A DNA stretch of 64,000 nucleotides, taken from NCBI GenBank assembly GCA_964652195.1, contig CAZZBB010000060.1, positions 39,003 through 103,002 on the forward strand. The letters are read 5' to 3'. Origin of the DNA: an uncultured bacterium (lineage in GTDB: Bacteria > Poribacteria > WGA-4E > WGA-3G). Each line of letters opens with the position of its first letter. The first letter of the stretch is position 1. The translations under genes were made by a program, and so were the position numbers. The notes under the pieces were generated by a model. The model was not told the DNA's origin. It worked only from the letters and a program-made list of their open reading frames with translations, and searched no databases. Positions 4,910 to 45,773 of this stretch are shown here, piece by piece.

Positions 4910-5292
4910 GCTGCTCCTAAGTTTTTAATATTTCACGATATATAGAATAATTAACGTTAACAAAGTATTAAGTGAATTATCACTGATTTCTCTTTCGTTG
5001 AGTTCACGTTATTATAGTAAACTTTTGCATTAATGAAGCATTTTACAACGGACGAGGTGACCTCGCCCTACGATGGACGTTTTTCGTAAACGTTGAAATG
5101 TCTCATTAATTATTCACTTTACTATAAATACATTCTTAATAGGAATCTCGTTGAGATTTGTCATTCCAACCATAGGATTTTTTGTTATTCATATTATAGA
5201 TGTTTTCTGATACATGTCAAGAACAGAAGCATTCACTTGATTCAAAACAAAATCTATAAACAAACTGATATTTCTGTCGGATAAAATGGTTT

Positions 5293-5359
5293 AAAACAGA
5301 CCTTTAATCCTAATATCCAGACAAACGATTAGGGTGCAAAAACAGACCTTTAATCCTAA
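5293..5359. repeat. tandem direct repeat aaaacagacctttaatcctaa x2 (period ~44 bp)
   Basis: Seen directly. Lies in a 1.2 kb AT-rich non-coding region. Confidence 0.6.
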
Positions 5360-5431
5360 ATTCCCTGATAATAAATCGTGAAAATGTTGTGTTTTTCCAT
5401 GTAACGAAAAAGTGTCGAAAAAGTGAAAAAA

Positions 5432-5461
5432 GTTACACTTTTTGACACATTGTGTGTCATT
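5432..5461. repeat. 30 bp motif shared with 20545-20574 (inverse orientation), embedded in a larger local palindrome
   Basis: gttacactttttgacacattgtgtgtcatt is the reverse complement of aatgacacacaatgtgtcaaaaagtgtaac at 20545. Confidence 0.55.
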
Positions 5462-5753
5462 GAAATTGGTGTAAATTCCCCCTCTAACCGCTGTCATAGA
5501 CTGACTTTACTCCACTTTGCATTAACTTTTTAAGAATTTCCAAAAAGTGTGATTTTGTGTTTTTGCTGTCCTTGTGAATTTTGACAATTCCACCATACAT
5601 ATTAAAGCAGATTTTTTGACATAAAGCTCTTTTGTATAATGGTTTGTATTTAGGATCGTTTTTATAGATAGTCATCATTTATTCTCTAATTATATACTTC
5701 CCATAAAAGTTATGGTTTTATGGTAGAATAAACAGTTTATTCTACATACTGAC

Positions 5754-5822
5754 TTGTAGGAGGGAATTCTAATTCCCGATTATCAAACTGGTTTGATCGC
5801 GATTCGGAAATCGCTCCTACAA
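5754..5822. repeat. ~70 bp palindromic repeat element, copy 2 of 4
   Basis: ttgtaggagggaattctaattcccgat ... gatcgcgattcggaaatcgctcctacaag. Confidence 0.6.
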
Positions 5823-6151
5823 GTAATGTGTATAATTACGTCAATATTTCACCATAAGTAGAATTTCTTCTCATATCATCTAAATATTCTATATCAATTT
5901 ACTGGAAGTGTGTGCTAAAAAAGTAGCTCTTGGTAATGTTAGTGGTTAGATATAGATATTTTCTTCAATTAATTTTCTTTTTTTATAAAAAAATGTATGA
6001 AATCAGCATTTGGTTAGATATAAACAAAAACAAGTAGTTGACTTTCTTTACAACATGATACCATTTCTAAATATATTTGTGTAACTTCTTGATAATTCCA
6101 CACAGGTTTGATATTATAAAACTCCGAATATTTTGATATAGGTAATAGAGA

Positions 6152-6334
6152 GTGTTTACAATTCAGTCAACTTTGACGGAAGAAGAGAAATGGCAAAATG
6201 AACCTGGTAAGGGTGGATATCCGCTGGACGAACATCGTGATAAAATATCTAATGAACAGTATGAATTAGAATCATTATCAAAAGACATAAAAGCTGCAGT
6301 GCGGCATATTCTACCTAATGGAGGCGAAGCGTGA
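6152..6334 (+). CDS. small hypothetical protein, stop overlaps the SDR start (ATGA)
   Basis: 60 aa ORF. The 4-bp ATGA overlap with the downstream SDR gene suggests translational coupling. Confidence 0.3.
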   Translation: MFTIQSTLTEEEKWQNEPGKGGYPLDEHRDKISNEQYELESLSKDIKAAVRHILPNGGEA

Positions 6335-7080
6335 GTTTAAAAGGACAAGTATGTATTATAACAGGCGGCGGAAGCGGAATTGGACGGGATGCTGCCTTGA
6401 AGATGGCACATCAAGGAGCAACTGTTGTTATCGTCGGCAGAACTGAATCGAAGTTAGAAATAGTAAAATCTGAAGGTAGTAGTGCCAGTGGAACAATAGT
6501 CAGTTATATACTTGATGTAGCTGATTATGAAGCAGTCCAGAAAATGGTGACGGATGTGGTAGAAAAATATGGACGGATTGATGTGCTTGTTAACAACGCA
6601 GGACACAGTTCACACAATCGTCGCATTACCAATGCAACACCAGATGAGGTGCGATCGGTAGTCGATTCAAACCTTATAGGTACGTTTTTCTGTTCTCAAG
6701 CTGTTGTACCTACCATGTTGGAAGCAAAGTCGGGAACAATCATCAATATCTCATCACTGGCAGCGATAACGCCTGGACCACTTGCAGGTTATGCTTATGG
6801 GGCAGCGAAGGCAGGTATTATTAATTTTACAGAGTTTCTTAATAATGATTTAATGAATACAGGTATCAGAGCCAGTGTCATTATTCCGGGTGAAGTCGCA
6901 ACACCGATTTTGGATAATCGACCAAATCCACCGGATGCAGAAGCACGCACAAAAATGGTAGATGTCGCAGAAACAACAGCTGCTATTCTCCTAATTGCCA
7001 CCTTACCCCCCAGAACAAACATACCGAAGTTGACAATCCGTCCAACTGAACATCGTGATATGGTTGAATTGAAAGATTGA
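6331..7080 (+). CDS. SDR family oxidoreductase (short-chain dehydrogenase/reductase)
   Basis: TGGGSGIGRD cofactor motif, NNAG, YGAAKAG catalytic motif. 249 aa. Confidence 0.9.
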   Translation: MSLKGQVCIITGGGSGIGRDAALKMAHQGATVVIVGRTESKLEIVKSEGSSASGTIVSYILDVADYEAVQKMVTDVVEKYGRIDVLVNNAGHSSHNRRITNATPDEVRSVVDSNLIGTFFCSQAVVPTMLEAKSGTIINISSLAAITPGPLAGYAYGAAKAGIINFTEFLNNDLMNTGIRASVIIPGEVATPILDNRPNPPDAEARTKMVDVAETTAAILLIATLPPRTNIPKLTIRPTEHRDMVELKD

Positions 7081-7084
7081 GGAA

Positions 7085-8293
7085 TCACCGGGTATAAATT
7101 GTTGTCTCAGGGTAATAACGTGCCCAAGCGAACCAATAGATGTTCACAGCAGGTATACGTTCTAAATTTTTACCTTTATGTTTGCCTAATGTTGCTTTAC
7201 CTGTAATCAGATTCCATTTTGTATCGGTATTATCTTGAGCGAAATAACCATCCTGGGGTGTAAAAAGTATTACCTTTTTGTCTACGATACGTTTATAAAC
7301 AGCGGTTGCAAATGACTCTTTGTCGTGATAGATTAACAAAGGCACACCGTTAACTGTATCGTTGATGATAGCGGTTTTCGCAAATCGTGAAAGTGGATAG
7401 GCGCGATAGTCCGTGTTATCAGAATCTTTTGGCTGAGTTTGTGTCAGATTATTTTGTATATTGACCTGTCCTCCATCAGCACCGTCTTGTCCATCAGCCC
7501 CATCCTGTCCAGCTGCACCGTCATGTCCAGCTAAGCCATCTTCACCAGCTTGACGTTGCACTTGGACTCCAATAACAAGCTGCTTATTCGGTAGTCTTTT
7601 ATCTGTGTATTTTGTTCCACTTACACCTGTGTCTTGGCTCGTGTGATACCTTTCATACGAATCAAGTCCGATGTCTTCTCGCATCTCGCCTCTATAGAGA
7701 ACAGAAAGCACACTTGTATCGGGAAAATTATCTTGCCATGTTTTCCATGTGATTTGTGGCATTGAGGCGAGTGGTTTTAGTTTTTTGCCTTTCAGTGGAC
7801 CTTGAATAGCTTCGCCAGTAATGTGTGACCAGAGTGACCGTGTTTGATGGTCATACATTAACAGTGCATCTCGCCACAATTTTCCGCTTACGCCGAAAGT
7901 GTAGGTTTTCCCTTCCAGTTCCCGACTATACACGATAGCCGTTTTACAGAGTGGTCACCATGTGGTAGCAATCTTTTTTCCGCCGACAACATCGTTTACA
8001 ATCTCATGTCCATTAAGCAGGTAGAGTGAATATGCGTGACTTTCACCGTTGAAAGTTACACCTATGACCGGTGCATCTGGATCTAATTTTGCTTTGCCAG
8101 CAGGCACGAATTGCGGCTTTGTGATAGCAGGGATGGCATCAAACTTCAGTAAAGTAATGATTGGGTCTTTGTCGTTGTCTGCTGCGGTTACGCTGAGAAC
8201 AAAAGTGAGTAAAAGCGTAAATATAGTGATGTAGTTTTTTAGAGAGGAAAGAATGTCTTTTCGGGATTTGCATGTTGTATTTGTCATTGGCAT
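7085..8293 (-). CDS. DUF3179-like secreted protein with one in-frame TGA (7955-7957) at the first Cys of the conserved CPLC motif. Either a candidate selenoprotein or a nonsense pseudogene.
   Basis: Track ORFs 7955..8383 and 7085..7933 are in the same frame (...KKIATTW-TGA-PLCKTAIVYSRELEGKTYTFGVSG...). Signal/TM at the N-terminus. Collagen-like GxD repeat insert. Confidence 0.5.
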
Positions 8294-27154: not shown

Positions 27155-29041
27155 TTAGTCATCTGTAGGATTGGTAAGATAAGCAATATCCCACAAAAAA
27201 ATAGTGCCTTCCCAACCACCACTTGCGAGTATACTCCCATCCTCATTAAAAGCAACAGTCTTGATATCATCCTTATGTGCATTGAATGTTTCGATTATTA
27301 CCCCAGATGCAATGTGCAAAATATGTACCTTTCTGTTTCTGGTTGAAATTGCCATTAGCGCACCATTCGGACTGAAGACCATCTCATTGATATCATTTCT
27401 AGACTTATAAAGTTTGGATTTATGCGTACCTGTGTCCACATTCCACAGGTGAATTGTGTTATCATCATGTAAACTTGCAAGGTTTTTTCCATTCGGACTA
27501 AAGGTAATGTGATATACAGATTGTGTCTTTTGCTTGAGTGTATCCATAAGTTCACCAGAAACGGGATCCCATAAATGAATTAACCCGTCAACCGCAGCAC
27601 TTGCAAGTGTTTCCCCATCGGAACTGAAGGCAACACTTAACACCCGAGATGTATGTTCTTTAAGACTATACAACTGATTCCCTGTTTTCGTATTCCACAT
27701 ACGAACAGTACCGTCGGAGTTTCCACTGACAATTACATCTCCATCAGGACTAAAAGCAACACAATAGAGTGATTCCACTGGCACCTTAATTACTTTGATC
27801 TGTTCCCCCGATGTGGTATCCCAGAGACGAAGAGTTGAGTCATTCCCCGCGCTGGCAAGGGTATTGCTATCATTGCTAAAATCAACACCATATACATAAC
27901 TAAATCTATGTCCAGTGAGAGAATTCTTGTTTTTACCTGATGTAACCTCCCAAAGATGGACCTTGTTATCACTATTTCCGCTTGCCATTGTCTTTCCATC
28001 TGGACTAAATGCAAGACTAAAAACGGAACCTATATGTCCAATGTAAGTATGTATGATCTCTCCAGAAGCAGCTCCCCAAATTCGTATTGTTCCATCTTGA
28101 CCTCCACTCGTTATGCTTCTAAAATCTGGACTAAACGCAACATCATTAATATGTGCATCATGTTCTGTGAAAGTCGTTAACTCTTCACCTTTGGCTACAT
28201 CCCACGTACGTATGGTATTATCATAACTTCCACTTGCAAGTATATTTCCATCCATACTGAAGGTGACACTATTGACCCAATGGGAATGACCAGTGAGAGT
28301 GTTCTTTGTTTCTCCAGTGGTTGTGTCCCATAAGCGGATAGTCGTGTCTGAACCACCACTTGCTAAAGTACTTCCATCCGGATTATAGACTACCGAAATA
28401 ACAGAACCGATGTGTCCATCAAGTGTCTGTATATGTTCACCTGATACCCAATCCCAAAGACGAATAGTTCCATCTGTGCTACCGCTTGCAAGTGTAAACG
28501 TATTGGGTTTGAAAGCAATACTTGGAACAAAACCTTTGTGCCCTTTAAGAGTCATCTTTTTTTGACGAGTAGTTAAGTCCCATAAGAAGATTTTTCCCTC
28601 CGTATTGCTGGCTGCGAGAGTGTTTCCATCCGGACTAAAGGCAAGACTTCCAACTTGTAATTTGTGGCCAACGAGTTCTTGTACATGTTCTCCTGTGACA
28701 GCATCCCAAAAATGGATTACCCCCGAACTATCACCACTGGCAAGAATGTTCCCATCTGGATTATAGGCAAGGCAGTCAACTCTACCACGGTGTTTAGTAA
28801 GGAAATGTACTTCTTCATGGGTTCTTGAATTATATATCCATATACCGATAGAGGTTGCTACCGCTAAACGCATGCCATTAGGAGAATATTCCATATCAGT
28901 GATTGTACCTTTCCCTATCCGGGCTATAGCTTTTTCAGGTAAATCCCATTTTGTATATTCTTGGGCATAAGTAATCTGTGTGTATTGAAATATAAAAAAG
29001 AATAACAAGTTTAGTGTTGTAATATTGTATAGTTTTTTCAT
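27155..29041 (-). CDS. WD40 repeat protein (many repeats) with N-terminal signal peptide
   Basis: More than 12 WD40 units (GH...WD). N-terminus MKKLYNITTLNLLFFFIFQYTQITYA. Confidence 0.9.
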   Translation of the reverse strand: MKKLYNITTLNLLFFFIFQYTQITYAQEYTKWDLPEKAIARIGKGTITDMEYSPNGMRLAVATSIGIWIYNSRTHEEVHFLTKHRGRVDCLAYNPDGNILASGDSSGVIHFWDAVTGEHVQELVGHKLQVGSLAFSPDGNTLAASNTEGKIFLWDLTTRQKKMTLKGHKGFVPSIAFKPNTFTLASGSTDGTIRLWDWVSGEHIQTLDGHIGSVISVVYNPDGSTLASGGSDTTIRLWDTTTGETKNTLTGHSHWVNSVTFSMDGNILASGSYDNTIRTWDVAKGEELTTFTEHDAHINDVAFSPDFRSITSGGQDGTIRIWGAASGEIIHTYIGHIGSVFSLAFSPDGKTMASGNSDNKVHLWEVTSGKNKNSLTGHRFSYVYGVDFSNDSNTLASAGNDSTLRLWDTTSGEQIKVIKVPVESLYCVAFSPDGDVIVSGNSDGTVRMWNTKTGNQLYSLKEHTSRVLSVAFSSDGETLASAAVDGLIHLWDPVSGELMDTLKQKTQSVYHITFSPNGKNLASLHDDNTIHLWNVDTGTHKSKLYKSRNDINEMVFSPNGALMAISTRNRKVHILHIASGVIIETFNAHKDDIKTVAFNEDGSILASGGWEGTIFLWDIAYLTNPTDD

Positions 29042-31290: not shown

Positions 31291-33264
31291 TTACATTTTA
31301 GAATTAGGTTCATCAAGATATATTATAACCAATGTTTCATCATTATAGGTAACAATTCTATCTGATATAAGTTGGTCTGTTGGTAAGAATCTGTCCAATT
31401 CAGAAGTCCAACCAATTAATTTGTTGTTACTTTTTTCTACGTCCTTTTCAGGCACGTCATCTGAGTTTAGAAGATATTGTAGTAATCCTTCGCTTTGCAA
31501 TAATTGTGCAAATGATTTTCGGGATCCATTGAGATGTCGGTTTATGGGAAGTTTTGTCAATATCTCACTTGAGGTATCTATTTTTGAGTAATTACTATTC
31601 CCGATTTTCATCGTCCCTAAGTACTTACCTTGATTACCTGTTATTATCCATGTGTTTTCAAGTTCCATATTTGACTGTTGTAAATCCATTGGAAATACTG
31701 CATGATGTGTATACGTACTTGGACCCCATGGCTCTATCTCAACATCTCTCAGTTGAAAAGATTTACCTTGTAAAAACTTAGATGGTTTTTGAATACCATC
31801 AGATTGTAATGGACGAATAAATGTTGTTGGTTTCAAGGGGATAGAGGTTATGTTGTGTGCTGGTGTCCGAAGGGATATAAAACGTTGTAAATTTACCTTA
31901 TTCAGTTCTGGATAAACAGTTAATATTGAAAAACTGTCCTTTTGTATTTTCTGAGGTATAACAACCTTCGCCACACTGATAGTACAAATAGAAAACAAAA
32001 CAAAAATAAAACCACCAATCCAATACACACGATTTCTACTTTTAGATGAACCCTGTCGTTTTTTAAGAAAGAACAGACAACCTAAACATAATACGTATAT
32101 AGGCAATAAAAGTGCCAGTAATTTTACAATGGGTATTTGTGTTGGCATTTTAGACAGGAACAGTTTATGTATTTTATCTTCATGTTGCCGGTAGGGTGTG
32201 TATTTATCACTTACATTTTTATGAGATTTACCATAGTTGTTAAGGAACCATACCCAAAAAGCTTCACCATGTTTAGGCATTGAGAACAAATGAGCATTGT
32301 AATCAAAAGCAAAGCAGATAATTTGTCCACTACCAAAATTTCGTTTTGCAATGTATATCTTATTATTATTTTCTATGATTGCGTCACACCCAGCTTTAAG
32401 TTCAAAACCGATACTATTGAACTTTTTCGTTGAAATTGGCGGATTACTTGAAGCCGATATAGTATTTTCAGTATTAATTTCAAACCGTTGTTTTAAAACG
32501 GTTGGTACATTTTCAATTATCTCTTCACGTAGCAACTTCACTGGGAGAATTTCTTCTATGAAACTATCTTTCAGGTAGCGGTAATTGCTACCACCAGAGA
32601 CAATCAGTGTGCCTCCGTCCTGTATCCACTCAAGTAATGCTGCCTGTTGCTTTTTTGAAAGACGTCTATCAGACAGTGATATTTCACGTAAAACTAATAC
32701 ATCAATAGTGCTATAACCTATCCATGCCGATGGCATTTCATTTGTATTCTGAATGTATTGTACATGAACACGGGTCTCACCATCATCCAATTGTTTTTGG
32801 TCAATTAATCTCTTTAATTTGTCTTCATTAGGAGTTAATGCCAGCAATAAATAGTCTTTGTTTTCAATAGGGGATGTTGGGAAAAAATCTCTTGTAATAA
32901 GTGGTTTGGAAATTTTCTCAATATCCAGACCTTCTCCTGTTCGTACCACTTGTATTGATAGTTTGACAGGAGTTACAGGAATAAAGATATAGAGTCGCAC
33001 ATTTTTACGATCCGTTTTTCTCAGTTGTATTGGTGTTGCATACCTAAATAATGTATCATCAGATATCAAGTTCTTGACTTCAACAATAATTTCACCAGAA
33101 AAAACTTTAAGTTCATTCTGGCTATGCACATGAACACTGAAAGGAACCCATTCTCCTGTTTTATACTTATCATTGTGCCCTAATGTGATATCCTCAATAT
33201 CTACAGAACATAAAGCACATGTAGTCGTAAAAAACAGGATAGAGTATGTTAGGATTTGCCGCAT
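31291..33264 (-). CDS. large membrane-anchored hypothetical protein (possible ABC-transporter auxiliary/GldG-like component)
   Basis: 657 aa. Signal peptide, two central TM helices. Gene order is next to the ABC ATPase. Confidence 0.4.
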   Translation of the reverse strand: MRQILTYSILFFTTTCALCSVDIEDITLGHNDKYKTGEWVPFSVHVHSQNELKVFSGEIIVEVKNLISDDTLFRYATPIQLRKTDRKNVRLYIFIPVTPVKLSIQVVRTGEGLDIEKISKPLITRDFFPTSPIENKDYLLLALTPNEDKLKRLIDQKQLDDGETRVHVQYIQNTNEMPSAWIGYSTIDVLVLREISLSDRRLSKKQQAALLEWIQDGGTLIVSGGSNYRYLKDSFIEEILPVKLLREEIIENVPTVLKQRFEINTENTISASSNPPISTKKFNSIGFELKAGCDAIIENNNKIYIAKRNFGSGQIICFAFDYNAHLFSMPKHGEAFWVWFLNNYGKSHKNVSDKYTPYRQHEDKIHKLFLSKMPTQIPIVKLLALLLPIYVLCLGCLFFLKKRQGSSKSRNRVYWIGGFIFVLFSICTISVAKVVIPQKIQKDSFSILTVYPELNKVNLQRFISLRTPAHNITSIPLKPTTFIRPLQSDGIQKPSKFLQGKSFQLRDVEIEPWGPSTYTHHAVFPMDLQQSNMELENTWIITGNQGKYLGTMKIGNSNYSKIDTSSEILTKLPINRHLNGSRKSFAQLLQSEGLLQYLLNSDDVPEKDVEKSNNKLIGWTSELDRFLPTDQLISDRIVTYNDETLVIIYLDEPNSKM

Positions 33265-37197: not shown

Positions 37198-37241
37198 TAT
37201 TAATCCTCCATAATAGGTGATAAAGTTTATTATCTTCTCTG

Positions 37242-37866
37242 TTATGACTTTTCAGTTGTCGTTCCTTGTTTTTGTAATTCTTCAAGGAGCCAAGCAATGT
37301 CTCGGTAGCACTTATCAAACGAATCTGATCGACGTGCTTGTTCGATGTCAAAGAGGGCAGCAAGCGCAGGTTGGTCAAGGGTTTCACGATATTTTCTATT
37401 ATTCTCCATTTGCTTGCTTAACCACTCCTTTGCCCCACGTATATTCTCCGGACTACTTGGCGGGTTAATGTCATCTTTTAAACCTCTCTTGCCACGAAGC
37501 GATTCAGCAGCGGCAAGAAACCAAGACTCAAATTCTTGCTTAGCAAGAACAACGGCAATCGGTATATTACGAAAAATTGGTGAAATCCGATTTAGTAAAG
37601 TCGGTGCCAAATCTGCCGGACAGTCATCATCACTGTCAAGAATAATGAGTATAGTACCTTGTTTGCTTATACTCCGAATTGCTATGCCAACTGCATGTTC
37701 AAGTTCACCTGTCTTAAAGACCTTATTTCTGGGAAATCTGATGGGAGTAGAAATGACAGGAACGAGTTCAGGACAATGGATTGCTGCTACGCGTCGAATC
37801 AATATTGGCACGGCTTTTACTTCCCCTTTTCCCTCAACAACACATCCTATTTTAACCTCATTCAAG
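37242..37866 (-). CDS. DUF4276 family protein (Toprim-like: conserved E and DxD)
   Basis: VEGKGEVKAVPILIRR, ILDSDDDCP, AKQEFESWFLA. Probable TTG start overlapping the ATPase stop codon. Confidence 0.6.
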
Positions 37867-39132
37867 TGTTCCCTCTTTTTCGTCAGTATCTCTCTTGATG
37901 TAATCAAAAAGGTTAAGCTGTTCCACTTTCGGACCATAACCTTTAGGTAACTGAGTAGGATCGGGTGTAAATTGATCGAGACGTAGTAATTCACCGGCTG
38001 TACACAAGTTGTCCCCCATTATAGATCTTCCTACTTTATCTACAGGTGCGATTAATGTATTACCATCCTGTGCTTCAACTGCAAGAATTGAGTCCACATC
38101 CAAGTGTTTGTCATCAAGCAGATCTGGACTGTGGCTTGTTATTAAGACCTGTCTTTTGTAAGCAGCATCCCGAAGTGCATCAAGTAATACCCCTGATGCA
38201 GCGGGATGAAGGGCGATTTCTGGTTCTTCAATTCCTACGAGTGGTACACTATTTTGTGTGCCTTGATCTCCTTGAAAAAGTGCTACCAAAATTCCCAGCA
38301 CACGGAGTGTCCCATCAGACATGTTATTTGCAAGAAATCTCCAAGTGTGTTTGTCACCAGCAACATCCTGTCTGAATTCCAATGTTTCTTTCGGTCCAAA
38401 TACTTTGACATTTACCTTATGTATACCAGGAACAACTGCTGCAAGATATTCCTCAATGTTTTCCTTCACTGCAGGTGAAAGCTGAGAAAAAATACTCGTT
38501 ATGTTGCCACCGTCACGTGTAAGTACAGCGCGAGGATCCGGTGTTTGTAGGTCTCGGATTTTATCAGGGTTAAGATTATAAAATCCCATTCGAGAAAATG
38601 TATCGTAAATAGGGCGAAATTCAGGTAAACCTGAAGCATTTAACAGATAAAGACGATCCGCCGCAGCCGCAGGTGGAACATTTAAATTTGTGTCAATCAC
38701 AGCACCTTCATCTATATGGAAGTATATATTAGGTGTAAGATGATTGCCATTATACAGTCTACACACCTCTGTCTGAACCCTATATTCAACGTTTTTATCA
38801 CGTGTACGGTCATCTCGTTTACAAGCACCGATGCGGAAGGCATAGTATCCAGTTAAACCATCAGGAATAGCAAATTCAAACCCTATACTAAAATGGTTTG
38901 GGTGTCCTCGGGAACGACGACGAACATCGTTGATACCTCCACGATCGCGTATTGCGTGTTCTAAGGAGTAATTCAATGCATCAGCAACAAACCGCAATGC
39001 ATCAAGAAAGTTGCTTTTACCCGAACCGTTTCGACCTACGAGGAACGTCAAAGGCTGCAAATGTATATCACATGCAGCGATACTCTTATAGTTTTTTAGA
39101 ATGACTCTCTTAATGAACGTTGAATCTTTCAT
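37858..39132 (-). CDS. ABC-type AAA ATPase (AAA_15/AAA_21-like), partner of DUF4276
   Basis: Walker A GRNGSGKSNFLDALRF. Walker B/D-loop GIEEPEIALHP. H-loop LITSHSPDLL. 424 aa. Confidence 0.75.
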   Translation of the reverse strand: MKDSTFIKRVILKNYKSIAACDIHLQPLTFLVGRNGSGKSNFLDALRFVADALNYSLEHAIRDRGGINDVRRRSRGHPNHFSIGFEFAIPDGLTGYYAFRIGACKRDDRTRDKNVEYRVQTEVCRLYNGNHLTPNIYFHIDEGAVIDTNLNVPPAAAADRLYLLNASGLPEFRPIYDTFSRMGFYNLNPDKIRDLQTPDPRAVLTRDGGNITSIFSQLSPAVKENIEEYLAAVVPGIHKVNVKVFGPKETLEFRQDVAGDKHTWRFLANNMSDGTLRVLGILVALFQGDQGTQNSVPLVGIEEPEIALHPAASGVLLDALRDAAYKRQVLITSHSPDLLDDKHLDVDSILAVEAQDGNTLIAPVDKVGRSIMGDNLCTAGELLRLDQFTPDPTQLPKGYGPKVEQLNLFDYIKRDTDEKEGTLE

Positions 39133-39167
39133 TCAGCATTAGACCTTGTTTTGAATTATACCCTTGT

Positions 39168-40013
39168 TTACCGTACATATTCCTCCCCACGGTGTTCAGC
39201 GATCCAAGTCTTCAGTGGTACATCAACATCTGTGGGTTGCCACCAACCTTTAATATCCACACCATCTCCTAACAACTGTCGTCTTATCGGATCACACTTG
39301 TCCAAGATTTCTGGTGGCATCAGATTGTAATCCAAACCACGTAACCATCGATAACTATACCCTATAAAGAAGACTTTACGTATAACATCAGAGAAATTCC
39401 ACCCCCTTGAATGCCACATCCTTCTATCAAAAAGCACTGCTGTACCACGTTTGACAAGAAGGTCTATAGCACCTTCTGGATCAGAATCAGGATCATCTCG
39501 TGGGGGTAAAGAATCAAGTTTGTGGCTCCCAGGAATGAGCCGCATAGCTCCGTTATCGCGATGCGTAACATCAGTTAACCAGTAGCTGACCTTTAATGAG
39601 AGTCGCGGATGCGGTCTTTCCATCTCTGGAACAGGTCTGCCACCATCTTGATGCCAATGTGCTGCTTTTTCAACACGTTGAGTTTCAGGGGGTTCAGGTG
39701 GATACATGATAAGGTGTGAAATATACAGTTGAATATTCCAACCCAAAATATCCCATAGCAGCGGAAATACCTTTTTATTATCAAGCAATTCCAATAATAT
39801 GTCGTCATCAATGATAGTGCGGAACTTTGATAACAACTTATGTGATGCTAAACCTGTTTTTTCACGTTCCTCAGCATCAAGACGGTCAGCTACCACCTCT
39901 AATGCTTCAACCATATCTTGACTGATTGCATCCTCAACAATAAGGTATCCATTATCATTGAAGGCTTTTAGTTGTTCAGTGGTAGCACAATATTCAAGCC
40001 AACTTGTATCCAT
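39168..40013 (-). CDS. phytanoyl-CoA dioxygenase (PhyH)-like protein
   Basis: 281 aa with a PhyH-like N-terminus (LKAFNDNGYLIVEDAIS) and HxD...H. Confidence 0.6.
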   Translation of the reverse strand: MDTSWLEYCATTEQLKAFNDNGYLIVEDAISQDMVEALEVVADRLDAEEREKTGLASHKLLSKFRTIIDDDILLELLDNKKVFPLLWDILGWNIQLYISHLIMYPPEPPETQRVEKAAHWHQDGGRPVPEMERPHPRLSLKVSYWLTDVTHRDNGAMRLIPGSHKLDSLPPRDDPDSDPEGAIDLLVKRGTAVLFDRRMWHSRGWNFSDVIRKVFFIGYSYRWLRGLDYNLMPPEILDKCDPIRRQLLGDGVDIKGWWQPTDVDVPLKTWIAEHRGEEYVR

Positions 40014-44609: not shown

Positions 44610-45007
44610 TCTCCAATACTTTTTGATATTATACCATAGACTTTCAATTTGTGATATGTTAATTCATTGAAGACCTTTGTTAATAAGATTAAGAAATCTC
44701 TTAGATAAGAATAAGTCTTCAAATTCTTTCTTATAGTAATATATTTGCATTAAATAAAATCTTATGTTAAACTATATTTCACGTTTCTCATTAATTCAAC
44801 TCTTGTATTTATAACGCAAATTGATATTGTAGATATACAGATTCAATTTACGACTGTTGGAGCGGGAAGCAGAATCATTTTATTTTACAAGAGTAAAGTA
44901 TAAATAATAATAATAATGTGGAAGACGTAACATGAATTTTTTGTATCAAAATCATTAAGGTTTTGCATTCCTTAATCTTCAATTACATACATGAAAGGAA
45001 TTACAAC

Positions 45008-45373
45008 ATGAGTGACGAAGTCATTTCGCGTATAAAGCAACGCCGTCGTGAGCTAAAAATGACACAAACAGAATTGGCAAAAGCAGCGAATTTAACTCCT
45101 GCAGCTATTTCTCAGTTTGAGTCAGGAACTCGTAAACCTTCTTTTAATACACTTTCAAGTTTATCCGATGCATTGAAGGTTACAACAGATTTCCTGCTTG
45201 GAAAGAAAGAGCGGGGTTATGACGACTTATTGGCTGATCCAAAGGTTAACTTGATGTTCAGAGGGATGATGGAATTTACAGAAAAAGATAAAGACACACT
45301 TTATGAATTCTATGCATTTCTTAAGTCAAAAGCAGAATCCGTACCAGGTGAAGGTTCTGAGGATGCTGAGTAG
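45008..45373 (+). CDS. XRE-family HTH transcriptional regulator
   Basis: MTQTELAKAANLTPAAISQFESGTRKPSFNTLSSLSDAL. Confidence 0.8.
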   Translation: MSDEVISRIKQRRRELKMTQTELAKAANLTPAAISQFESGTRKPSFNTLSSLSDALKVTTDFLLGKKERGYDDLLADPKVNLMFRGMMEFTEKDKDTLYEFYAFLKSKAESVPGEGSEDAE

Positions 45374-45536: not shown

Positions 45537-45773
45537 GTGTTGGGAATGCATCCGGTAAAAGCATATCTTCAAAGTGAAAAAAGAGCGAATCAATTTGCAG
45601 TTGAATTGTTGATGCCTACTCCCATCTTTTTAACAGACTCAGCCTCACTTTTACACCGACCATATAGTGATCATTCGGCAGGTAAAAACGACAAGATTAT
45701 TAAACATTCACGGCGAATTCCAGATACAAAGCAAGTAATCACCTTTCTACGTCTCCCCACTAAATTTTGCTAA
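45537..45773 (+). pseudogene. ImmA/IrrE-family metallopeptidase remnant (C-terminal fragment only)
   Basis: The family motif ANQFAVELLMP is present, but the HExxH region is missing upstream. Confidence 0.4.

Follow-up and report, generated by a model that had tools for sequence, protein, structure and literature searches.

We describe a pair of overlapping genes, here called A and B, located within an array of metabolic genes in a 64,000-nucleotide (nt) stretch of DNA from an uncultured member of the Poribacteria (assembly GCA_964652195.1, contig CAZZBB010000060.1, forward-strand positions 39,003 to 103,002), which we refer to as the window. The pair is, with near certainty, a member of HEC-01, a catalogued candidate anti-phage system. 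It is already named in PADLOC and is not a new system; what is new is its context, as an old, site-fixed resident of the Poribacteria sulfatase-kinase array with many alleles. The reading that we favor, and regard as probable, is that an ABC ATPase (A) is translationally coupled to a Toprim-like nuclease (B), that the two act against phages or mobile DNA, and that the pair is an old resident of one site where its alleles are exchanged. The main features, in window coordinates, are the following.

37858-39132, minus strand: gene A, HEC-01A, a 424-amino-acid (aa) ABC-type (SMC/OLD-like) ATPase, identified from its open reading frame (ORF), Pfam and PADLOC
37242-37865, minus strand: gene B, HEC-01B, a 207-aa DUF4276 protein with a TTG start, a Toprim-like putative metal-dependent nuclease
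37858-37879, minus strand: A/B junction, with a GAGGG ribosome-binding motif, the TTG of B and the TGA of A, read from the sequence
39133-39167, minus strand: 35-nt spacer between the stop of a PhyH gene and the start of A, read from the sequence
37198-37241, minus strand: 44-nt spacer between the stop of B and the start of the gene for a 467-aa sulfatase, read from the sequence, with no terminator-like site there
37290-39250, minus strand: block in which one allele replaces another; in comparisons with close relatives, nucleotide identity falls sharply inside it and is regained in the flanks

Assignment to HEC-01

The PADLOC HEC-01A profile (PDLC04178) matches A with an E-value of 3e-154 and 511.9 bits, aligning residues 1-397 to positions 1-389 of the 399 in the profile, and the HEC-01B profile (PDLC04196) matches B with 6e-71 and 236.5 bits, aligning residues 1-196 to positions 1-194 of 197. 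The two genes are adjacent and co-oriented, as a HEC-01 pair should be, and divergent alleles from two other Poribacteria loci, L047 and L086, match the same two profiles. HEC-01 (Hma-embedded candidate 01, PADLOC-DB v2) was defined by Payne et al. as an ABC ATPase plus a Toprim protein found inside Hma systems (10.1101/2024.01.29.577857). The window pair shares that architecture, an ABC ATPase followed by a small Toprim-like protein, with full-length profile matches. It differs in its surroundings, since it lies outside any Hma or defense system, in a sulfatase-kinase array, at one site across Poribacteria and with many old alleles. An initial annotation, made from the sequence alone, had described a two-gene module of an ATPase and a DUF4276 protein that could not be assigned to a named system. 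Both ORFs are confirmed, as is the view of the pair as an ATPase and a Toprim protein of the OLD/PARIS/Gabija type split over two genes; a name does exist, and it is HEC-01.

A and B are co-oriented on the minus strand, a correction to the strand first given, and overlap by 8 nt (37858-37865). The TTG of B (37865) lies 5 nt before the first base of the TGA of A, where the initial annotation had placed it, imprecisely, 4 nt inside the stop codon, and a Shine-Dalgarno-like GAGGG sits 5 nt upstream of that TTG. The DUF4276 protein, first put at about 208 aa, has 207; independent gene callers chose the identical start in two other assemblies of the same organism. Such an arrangement points to translational coupling. 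The overlap is 4 nt in the alleles of L083, L084, L086, L105 and L111, and a short gap separates the genes in a few others (10 nt in L114, 65 nt in L047). The gaps to the neighbors, reported earlier as 35-44 bp, measure 35 nt between PhyH and A and 44 nt between B and the sulfatase gene. The 35-nt spacer, similar in L047, is too short to hold an obvious promoter of its own, so that transcription probably runs into the pair from the genes upstream. A scan for promoters and terminators across the array stays at the level of shuffled sequence (50 promoter-like sites versus 52.7 expected, 9 terminator-like sites versus 10.4 expected), so that we infer co-transcription from the short gaps.

The ATPase and its Toprim-like partner

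Protein A carries the Walker A, Walker B/D-loop and H-loop strings quoted in the initial annotation, GRNGSGKSNF (33-42), IEEPEIALHP (301-310) and TSHSPDLL (332-339). More exactly, Walker A spans G33-S40, a signature-like motif starts at M271 (M271-SDGTLR), Walker B and the D-loop run L298-VGIEEPEIALHP-310, and the H-loop histidine is H334; every motif residue is invariant among 35 alleles. The proposed AAA_15/21 type is borne out by Pfam, which matches AAA_21 (4e-30), AAA_15 (2e-23) and SMC_N (1.3e-14). The closest solved sequences are those of an OLD nuclease (6p74, 3.7e-10), GajA and PtuA. Among 117 cluster representatives of A, the variable segments are residues 100-150, 220-250 and 391-424, and the ATPase motifs and a block at residues 161-190 are fixed.

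Protein B matches Pfam DUF4276 with an E-value of 1.5e-12 and 48.6 bits, above the gathering cutoff of 30.2, which completes the Pfam check proposed in the initial annotation, with DUF4276, AAA_15 and AAA_21 all found. The Toprim hallmarks proposed there, an N-terminal Glu motif and a DxD, are present as VVEGKGE (9-15) and ILDSDDDCP (75-83). In an alignment of 29 alleles, E11, D77, K109, E111 and E113 are invariant, D79 and D81 are nearly so, and a C-terminal S-F-D-K-C-Y-R motif is invariant or nearly so at each position. The AlphaFold model of B has a predicted local distance difference test score (pLDDT) of 77.9 and a predicted template modeling score (pTM) of 0.74. Its elements follow the order beta1-alpha1-beta2-alpha2-beta3-alpha3-beta4-alpha4, with E11 at the end of beta1 (2-11) and D77xD79 just past beta3 (71-76). 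In the model, the secondary-structure order and the placement of the acidic residues agree with the Toprim layout, in which a conserved Glu follows beta1 and a DxD follows beta3 on a beta-alpha fold with four parallel strands. A Foldseek search of the model against the PDB and BFVD gives no match at E <= 0.001, and a B profile finds 0 matches among PDB sequences even at E <= 10, so no solved structure anchors the fold. Two papers assign HEC-01B/DUF4276 to Toprim (10.1101/2024.01.29.577857; PMC12065111), and the second of them, the Menshen analysis, formally put DUF4276 in the Toprim superfamily. Among 118 cluster representatives of B, residues 31-70, 91-100 and 150-160 are variable, and the acidic residues and the DSFDKCYR motif are fixed.

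Comparison with other ATPase-nuclease systems

Profiles of AriA, Old, GajA, AbiLi, NsnB and mad3 in PADLOC also match A, more weakly, and these matches reflect a common ATPase class. The likeness to AbiL, PARIS and OLD raised in the initial annotation therefore holds for the class of the ATPase and fails for membership: profile tests lead us to reject PARIS, OLD, Gabija, AbiL and MADS, and B matches none of the nuclease partners of these ATPases.

PARIS is the closest mechanistic model, that of a nuclease released by a trigger. It likewise consists of two genes, a sensor ATPase and a Toprim effector, and AriA profiles match A at 1e-25 to 1e-28. Its effector AriB, however, is a DUF4435 Toprim, and the window B is a DUF4276 protein that leaves the AriB profiles unmatched; in the ATPase tree of the PARIS paper, DUF4276 appears as a distinct partner domain. 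MADS comes close in content, as MAD3 and MAD4 are likewise an ATPase and a DUF4276 protein, and the PADLOC mad3 profile matches A at 7e-24. The NCBIfam MAD3 model scores 90.8 bits on A against a cutoff of 420, and the ten array neighbors of the window pair are only metabolic by Pfam, with no methyltransferase, although no separate run of the MAD6-8 profiles was made. The Mad4 protein is homologous to DUF4276 (PMC12065111), and deletion of mad3 or mad4 weakens MADS defense, which needs the ATPase/DUF4276 pair (10.1101/2023.03.30.534895; PMC12065111). In Menshen, some NsnC variants have a DUF4276 C-terminal domain, that is, a swappable Toprim-type effector beside the ABC ATPase NsnB (PMC12065111). 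The NsnB profile matches A at 1e-23, but Menshen has three genes including NsnA, and no such partners lie beside the window pair.

In OLD and GajA a single chain of about 530-600 aa contains both domains, whereas here they are split over two genes. The Old profile matches only parts of A (5.9e-21) and does not match B, and matches of the GajA profiles to A are confined to its P-loop and its C-terminal ATPase segments. In Gabija, GajA is accompanied by a helicase, GajB, and there is no helicase among the neighbors of the window pair. One 609-aa protein, P0369, joins A and B in one ORF and was considered as a possible Rosetta-stone fusion. Its Arg/Pro-rich linker resembles out-of-frame translation; it may be a frameshift artifact, not a true OLD-like fusion, and we do not rely on it.

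A fixed site in Poribacteria

By Pfam, the neighbors of the pair in the window are PhyH, two sulfatases, a GFO/IDH/MocA oxidoreductase, a GHMP kinase, a PfkB kinase and an ABC ATPase. We sampled related loci in two ways. The flanking PhyH gene retrieved 80 loci, nearly all from Candidatus or uncultured Poribacteria (sponge symbionts), which were scanned for synteny, and a further sample consists of long Poribacteria contigs bearing HEC-01 homologues of 63-76% identity. Retrieval by flanking genes does not favor carriers, and the loci obtained in this way agree with the carrier-based ones. At the homologue loci the gene order is invariant: PhyH, A, B, the 467-aa sulfatase, sometimes a second sulfatase, the GHMP kinase, a protein of about 650 aa, the PfkB kinase and the ABC ATPase. 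Apart from L003 and L047, described below, the PhyH-retrieved loci have a different gene after PhyH.

Occupancy was counted over 14 distinct Poribacteria loci with usable upstream sequence, in three clades defined by the flanks. In all 14, either the pair or what is left of it lies between PhyH and the 467-aa sulfatase. Ten have an intact pair, among them L087, L090, L114 and L117, found through the flanks. One (L088, the same as L089) has A only, one (L116) has a disrupted A next to an intact B, possibly through an assembly fault, and two (L003 and L112) retain only the last ~130 nt of B. L003 is the closest relative of the window (PhyH and sulfatase both 98% identical) and keeps the gene order without the pair. 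We had considered it a naive empty site, and dropped that interpretation once its 192-nt spacer was found to align with the final ~130 nt of B, out of frame because of a 2-nt gap. The same scar is present in L112, which has neither gene. Given this 3' remnant of B, the two "empty" sites are deletions rather than naive sites, and the pair is ancestral there. By this evidence the pair is an old resident of one fixed site between the PhyH gene and the sulfatase-kinase array. The comparison of neighborhoods that the initial annotation had proposed thus does find the pair variably present, through loss and not through gain.

The initial annotation had seen in the pair a recently inserted defense cassette. 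A mobile cassette lately dropped into a metabolic operon, variably present by gain, would fit the tight gaps, the lack of functional relation between the pair and its neighbors, and the absence of the pair from the closest relatives L003 and L112. The same site is nevertheless occupied by the pair or its remnant in all three clades, the scars in L003 and L112 point to deletion, there is no shift in guanine-cytosine (GC) content, and the ORF and family lists of the array contain no integrase, transposase or repeat boundary. We therefore abandon recent insertion as very improbable.

Divergence and replacement of alleles

The pair does not evolve as its flanks do. A and B are 58-83% identical in amino acids in every pairwise comparison, regardless of clade, and the sulfatase is 96-98% identical within the clade of the window. 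L047, with PhyH 94% and sulfatase 96% identical to those of the window, has the pair at the same site with A and B only 62% and 60% identical. L086 and L087 are a case in point: their flanks are 99-100% identical in amino acids, with A at 81% and B at 72%. In 100-nt windows their nucleotide identity is 100% up to the start of A and again from the end of B; within the cassette it is 48-86% over most of the length, 90-100% at the conserved ends and low, 48-67%, at the A/B junction. Between the window and L107, 100-nt windows give 85-100% in the flanks and 41-88% between about 39250 and 37290.

Synonymous divergence (dS) contrasts between flanks and A in opposite directions in two comparisons. 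Between the window and L107 it is 0.24-0.39 in the flanks and 1.40 in A; between the window and L086, of another clade, it is at least 2.2 or saturated in the flanks and 0.57 in A, where stretches are 92-97% identical in nucleotides and the sulfatase gene is at ~80%. Over 45 pairs, the identity of A is uncorrelated with that of the sulfatase (Spearman rho -0.09), and it is weakly correlated with that of B (rho 0.37, the 45 pairs being non-independent), from which we infer that the alleles are mosaics. Allele lineages do not follow the genome tree. The ratio of nonsynonymous to synonymous divergence (dN/dS) is 0.11-0.23 for A and B and 0.02-0.13 for the flanks, so both genes are kept functional under purifying selection, somewhat less constrained than their neighbors; the whole-gene values show no sign of positive selection. 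The pattern is best described as one of diverged alleles for which homologous recombination via the conserved gene ends and the flanks would be the means of exchange, with occasional deletion. As judged from these comparisons, the pair has a population pattern typical of immune genes.

There are at least 117 full-length cluster representatives of A (90%-identity clusters), 67-100% identical to A of the window, and 118 of B, and all A representatives with context examined have the same genomic setting. The Poribacteria alleles form one cluster at 50% identity, and the next relatives are at most 53% identical. In the wider family, 2,313 DUF4276 cluster representatives match at E <= 0.001, and 312 at E <= 1e-30.

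Function

By analogy with OLD, Gabija and PARIS, the pair is likely a sensor ATPase controlling a metal-dependent nuclease whose targets would be phages or other mobile DNA. A would dimerize around ATP and serve as sensor and switch, and its variable segments (about 100-150, 220-250 and the C-terminal tail 391-424) may recognize a cue from the phage or mobile element. B would carry the acidic metal site (E11, D77/D79/D81 and E111/E113), and A would license or release B to cut nucleic acid, either DNA or RNA. Cutting by B would then stop the invader or the infected cell.

Several observations weigh against this interpretation. The HEC-01 tested by Payne et al. did not protect E. coli from the phages tried (10.1101/2024.01.29.577857). 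In its favor, a cold-seep study, in which HEC-01 is among the most abundant system types, reported one HEC-01 that gave E. coli B protection from at least one of the phages T4, T5 and T7 (10.1101/2024.09.26.614923); the two published activity tests disagree. Pfam finds no mobile-element or defense gene in the array of the window. Every Poribacteria locus sampled has the pair at the same operon position, which is unusual for a defense system and fits housekeeping equally well, and the GC content of the pair (0.41-0.43) equals that of the flanks. B has no match to OLD, GajA or AriB profiles, being recognized only as HEC-01 in PADLOC and only as DUF4276 in Pfam. The predicted structure of A, over 35 alleles, is too poor to use (pLDDT 49, pTM 0.43). 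This clade is also not commonly carried by phages or plasmids: a mobility search returned 3 Streptomyces matches among plasmids (37-40%), 1 among phages (33%) and 1 in IMG/VR (33%). In favor of defense, on a Streptomyces linear plasmid the pair lies beside a Fic toxin and a pair formed by a 664-aa AAA ATPase and a helicase, which is a typical defense neighborhood.

These points raise the question of a housekeeping or operon-linked role with no part in defense, either as a RecF/RecR-like pair acting on the cell's own DNA or RNA or as a factor co-opted for the sulfatase-kinase array. The fixed position across Poribacteria, the probable co-transcription with metabolic genes, the purifying selection on both genes, and the one tested HEC-01 without phage protection all agree with such a role. 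So does a weak N-terminal match of A to RecF/SMC, but the RecF model gives 31 bits against a cutoff of 172 and covers the N-terminal P-loop only, and B has no NCBIfam match, to RecR or to any other housekeeping family. Loss of the pair, or damage to it, has recurred in operons that are otherwise intact, and sulfatase homologues in other metagenomes, outside Poribacteria and at most 72% identical, have no such pair nearby. Elsewhere the family is found beside defense and toxin genes. Deep alleles that disagree with the genome tree and are replaced between near-identical genomes would be unexpected for a repair or metabolic factor, and we consider a housekeeping role unlikely. The initial annotation had itself named, as a finding that would count against defense, conservation of the pair in the sulfatase operon without defense-island behavior. 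The conserved position is indeed what we see; allele replacement, discordant history and repeated loss remain on the other side.

A selfish addiction module of the toxin-antitoxin kind, persisting because its loss is harmful and giving no anti-phage benefit, is another way to account for a small cassette of two overlapping genes. The Pfam label of AAA_21 is that of a "putative AbiEii toxin" domain, and L088, which retains A and has lost B, fits a nuclease toxin being lost first. The other damaged loci do not follow that order: L116 shows the opposite one, a damaged A with an intact B, and in L003 and L112 A was lost along with most of B, without any compensating change being visible. Addiction alone leaves unexplained why there are dozens of old alleles and why only the cassette is replaced. 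Many abortive-infection systems resemble toxin-antitoxin pairs, so this explanation partly overlaps the one that we favor; as a complete account, addiction without anti-phage benefit seems to us quite unlikely.

Returning to HEC-01 as an immune pair, we tentatively go one step further, with confidence that falls a little short of even. In Poribacteria, HEC-01 may be an operon-embedded immune locus of the whole lineage, acquired once upstream of the sulfatase-kinase array and long kept as balanced old alleles that are traded between strains and clades by recombination within the cassette. If so, it would parallel, in bacteria, the trans-species polymorphism of immune genes, and it would offer a natural allele series to map HEC-01 specificity in A (100-150, 220-250 and the C-terminal tail) and in the N-terminal half of B. 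HEC-01 is barely characterized, and the Poribacteria locus is a natural experiment, with some pairs of alleles that differ only inside the cassette. The allele set separates variable segments, which are candidates for specificity, from parts that never vary, namely the catalytic core and DSFDKCYR. It also illustrates that an immune-type gene need not be dismissed for lying in a metabolic operon, having uniform GC content or being conserved across relatives.

Neighboring genes and other variable positions

The genes upstream of PhyH differ between clades. Some loci have phosphoglucomutase-like (PGM-like), BNR-repeat and GFO/IDH/MocA oxidoreductase (GFO) genes, as the window does; other clade-specific content includes ABC transporter genes with HsdR further up, and cohesin/dockerin genes. 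In some Poribacteria, unmistakable defense genes are found shortly upstream of the PhyH-HEC-01 block. In L083 (512-3490) and L086 (1-2867) this is a type I HsdR, five genes away; in L108 (277-7373) there is an Eco57I-type restriction-modification gene along with genes for a TIR-TPR and a PIN protein.

The PhyH directly upstream of A is of two barely related types, one of 281 aa in the window (39168-40013, minus strand) and one of 283 aa in L086 (7855-8706), whose best local match is 31% over 35 residues. Their presence beside A may be chance in PhyH-rich genomes, or a rearrangement may have placed a different PhyH there. In L004-L082, the spacing between GFO and the 281-aa PhyH ranges from ~15 nt to ~3 kb (locus coordinates about 5000-8000), which suggests a second variable insertion point.

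Pairs of CapH and CapP are regulators of defense operons. Divergent from the array, the window encodes at 44963-45373 (plus strand) an XRE-type helix-turn-helix (HTH) protein that matches the PADLOC capH profile at 3.6e-17, followed at 45537-45773 (plus strand) by a small ORF with 'EKRANQFAVELLMP' that resembles a remnant of the partner ImmA/IrrE (M78, CapP-like) peptidase. The HTH/peptidase pair is intact in L107 (1005-1910 and 1849-2214).

Within the conserved array, the fastest-evolving gene encodes a 657-aa protein (31291-33264, minus strand) that matches nothing in Pfam or PADLOC; its identity is 71-84% inside the clade of the window and 37-51% to other clades, with its neighbors at 70-98%. 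A 628-aa protein at 27155-29041 (minus strand) matches the PADLOC HEAT-ARM_XIII profile at 1.8e-44. In the close relatives L112, L114 and L116, a sigma70-WD40 fusion of 957-970 aa follows the ABC ATPase instead, so this end of the array varies too. A few genes downstream of the array, the same three loci have a DUF433 gene (L112 18004-18535, L114 18042-18257, L116 17968-18183), which in L112 is paired with a DUF5615 gene as a toxin-antitoxin-like pair.

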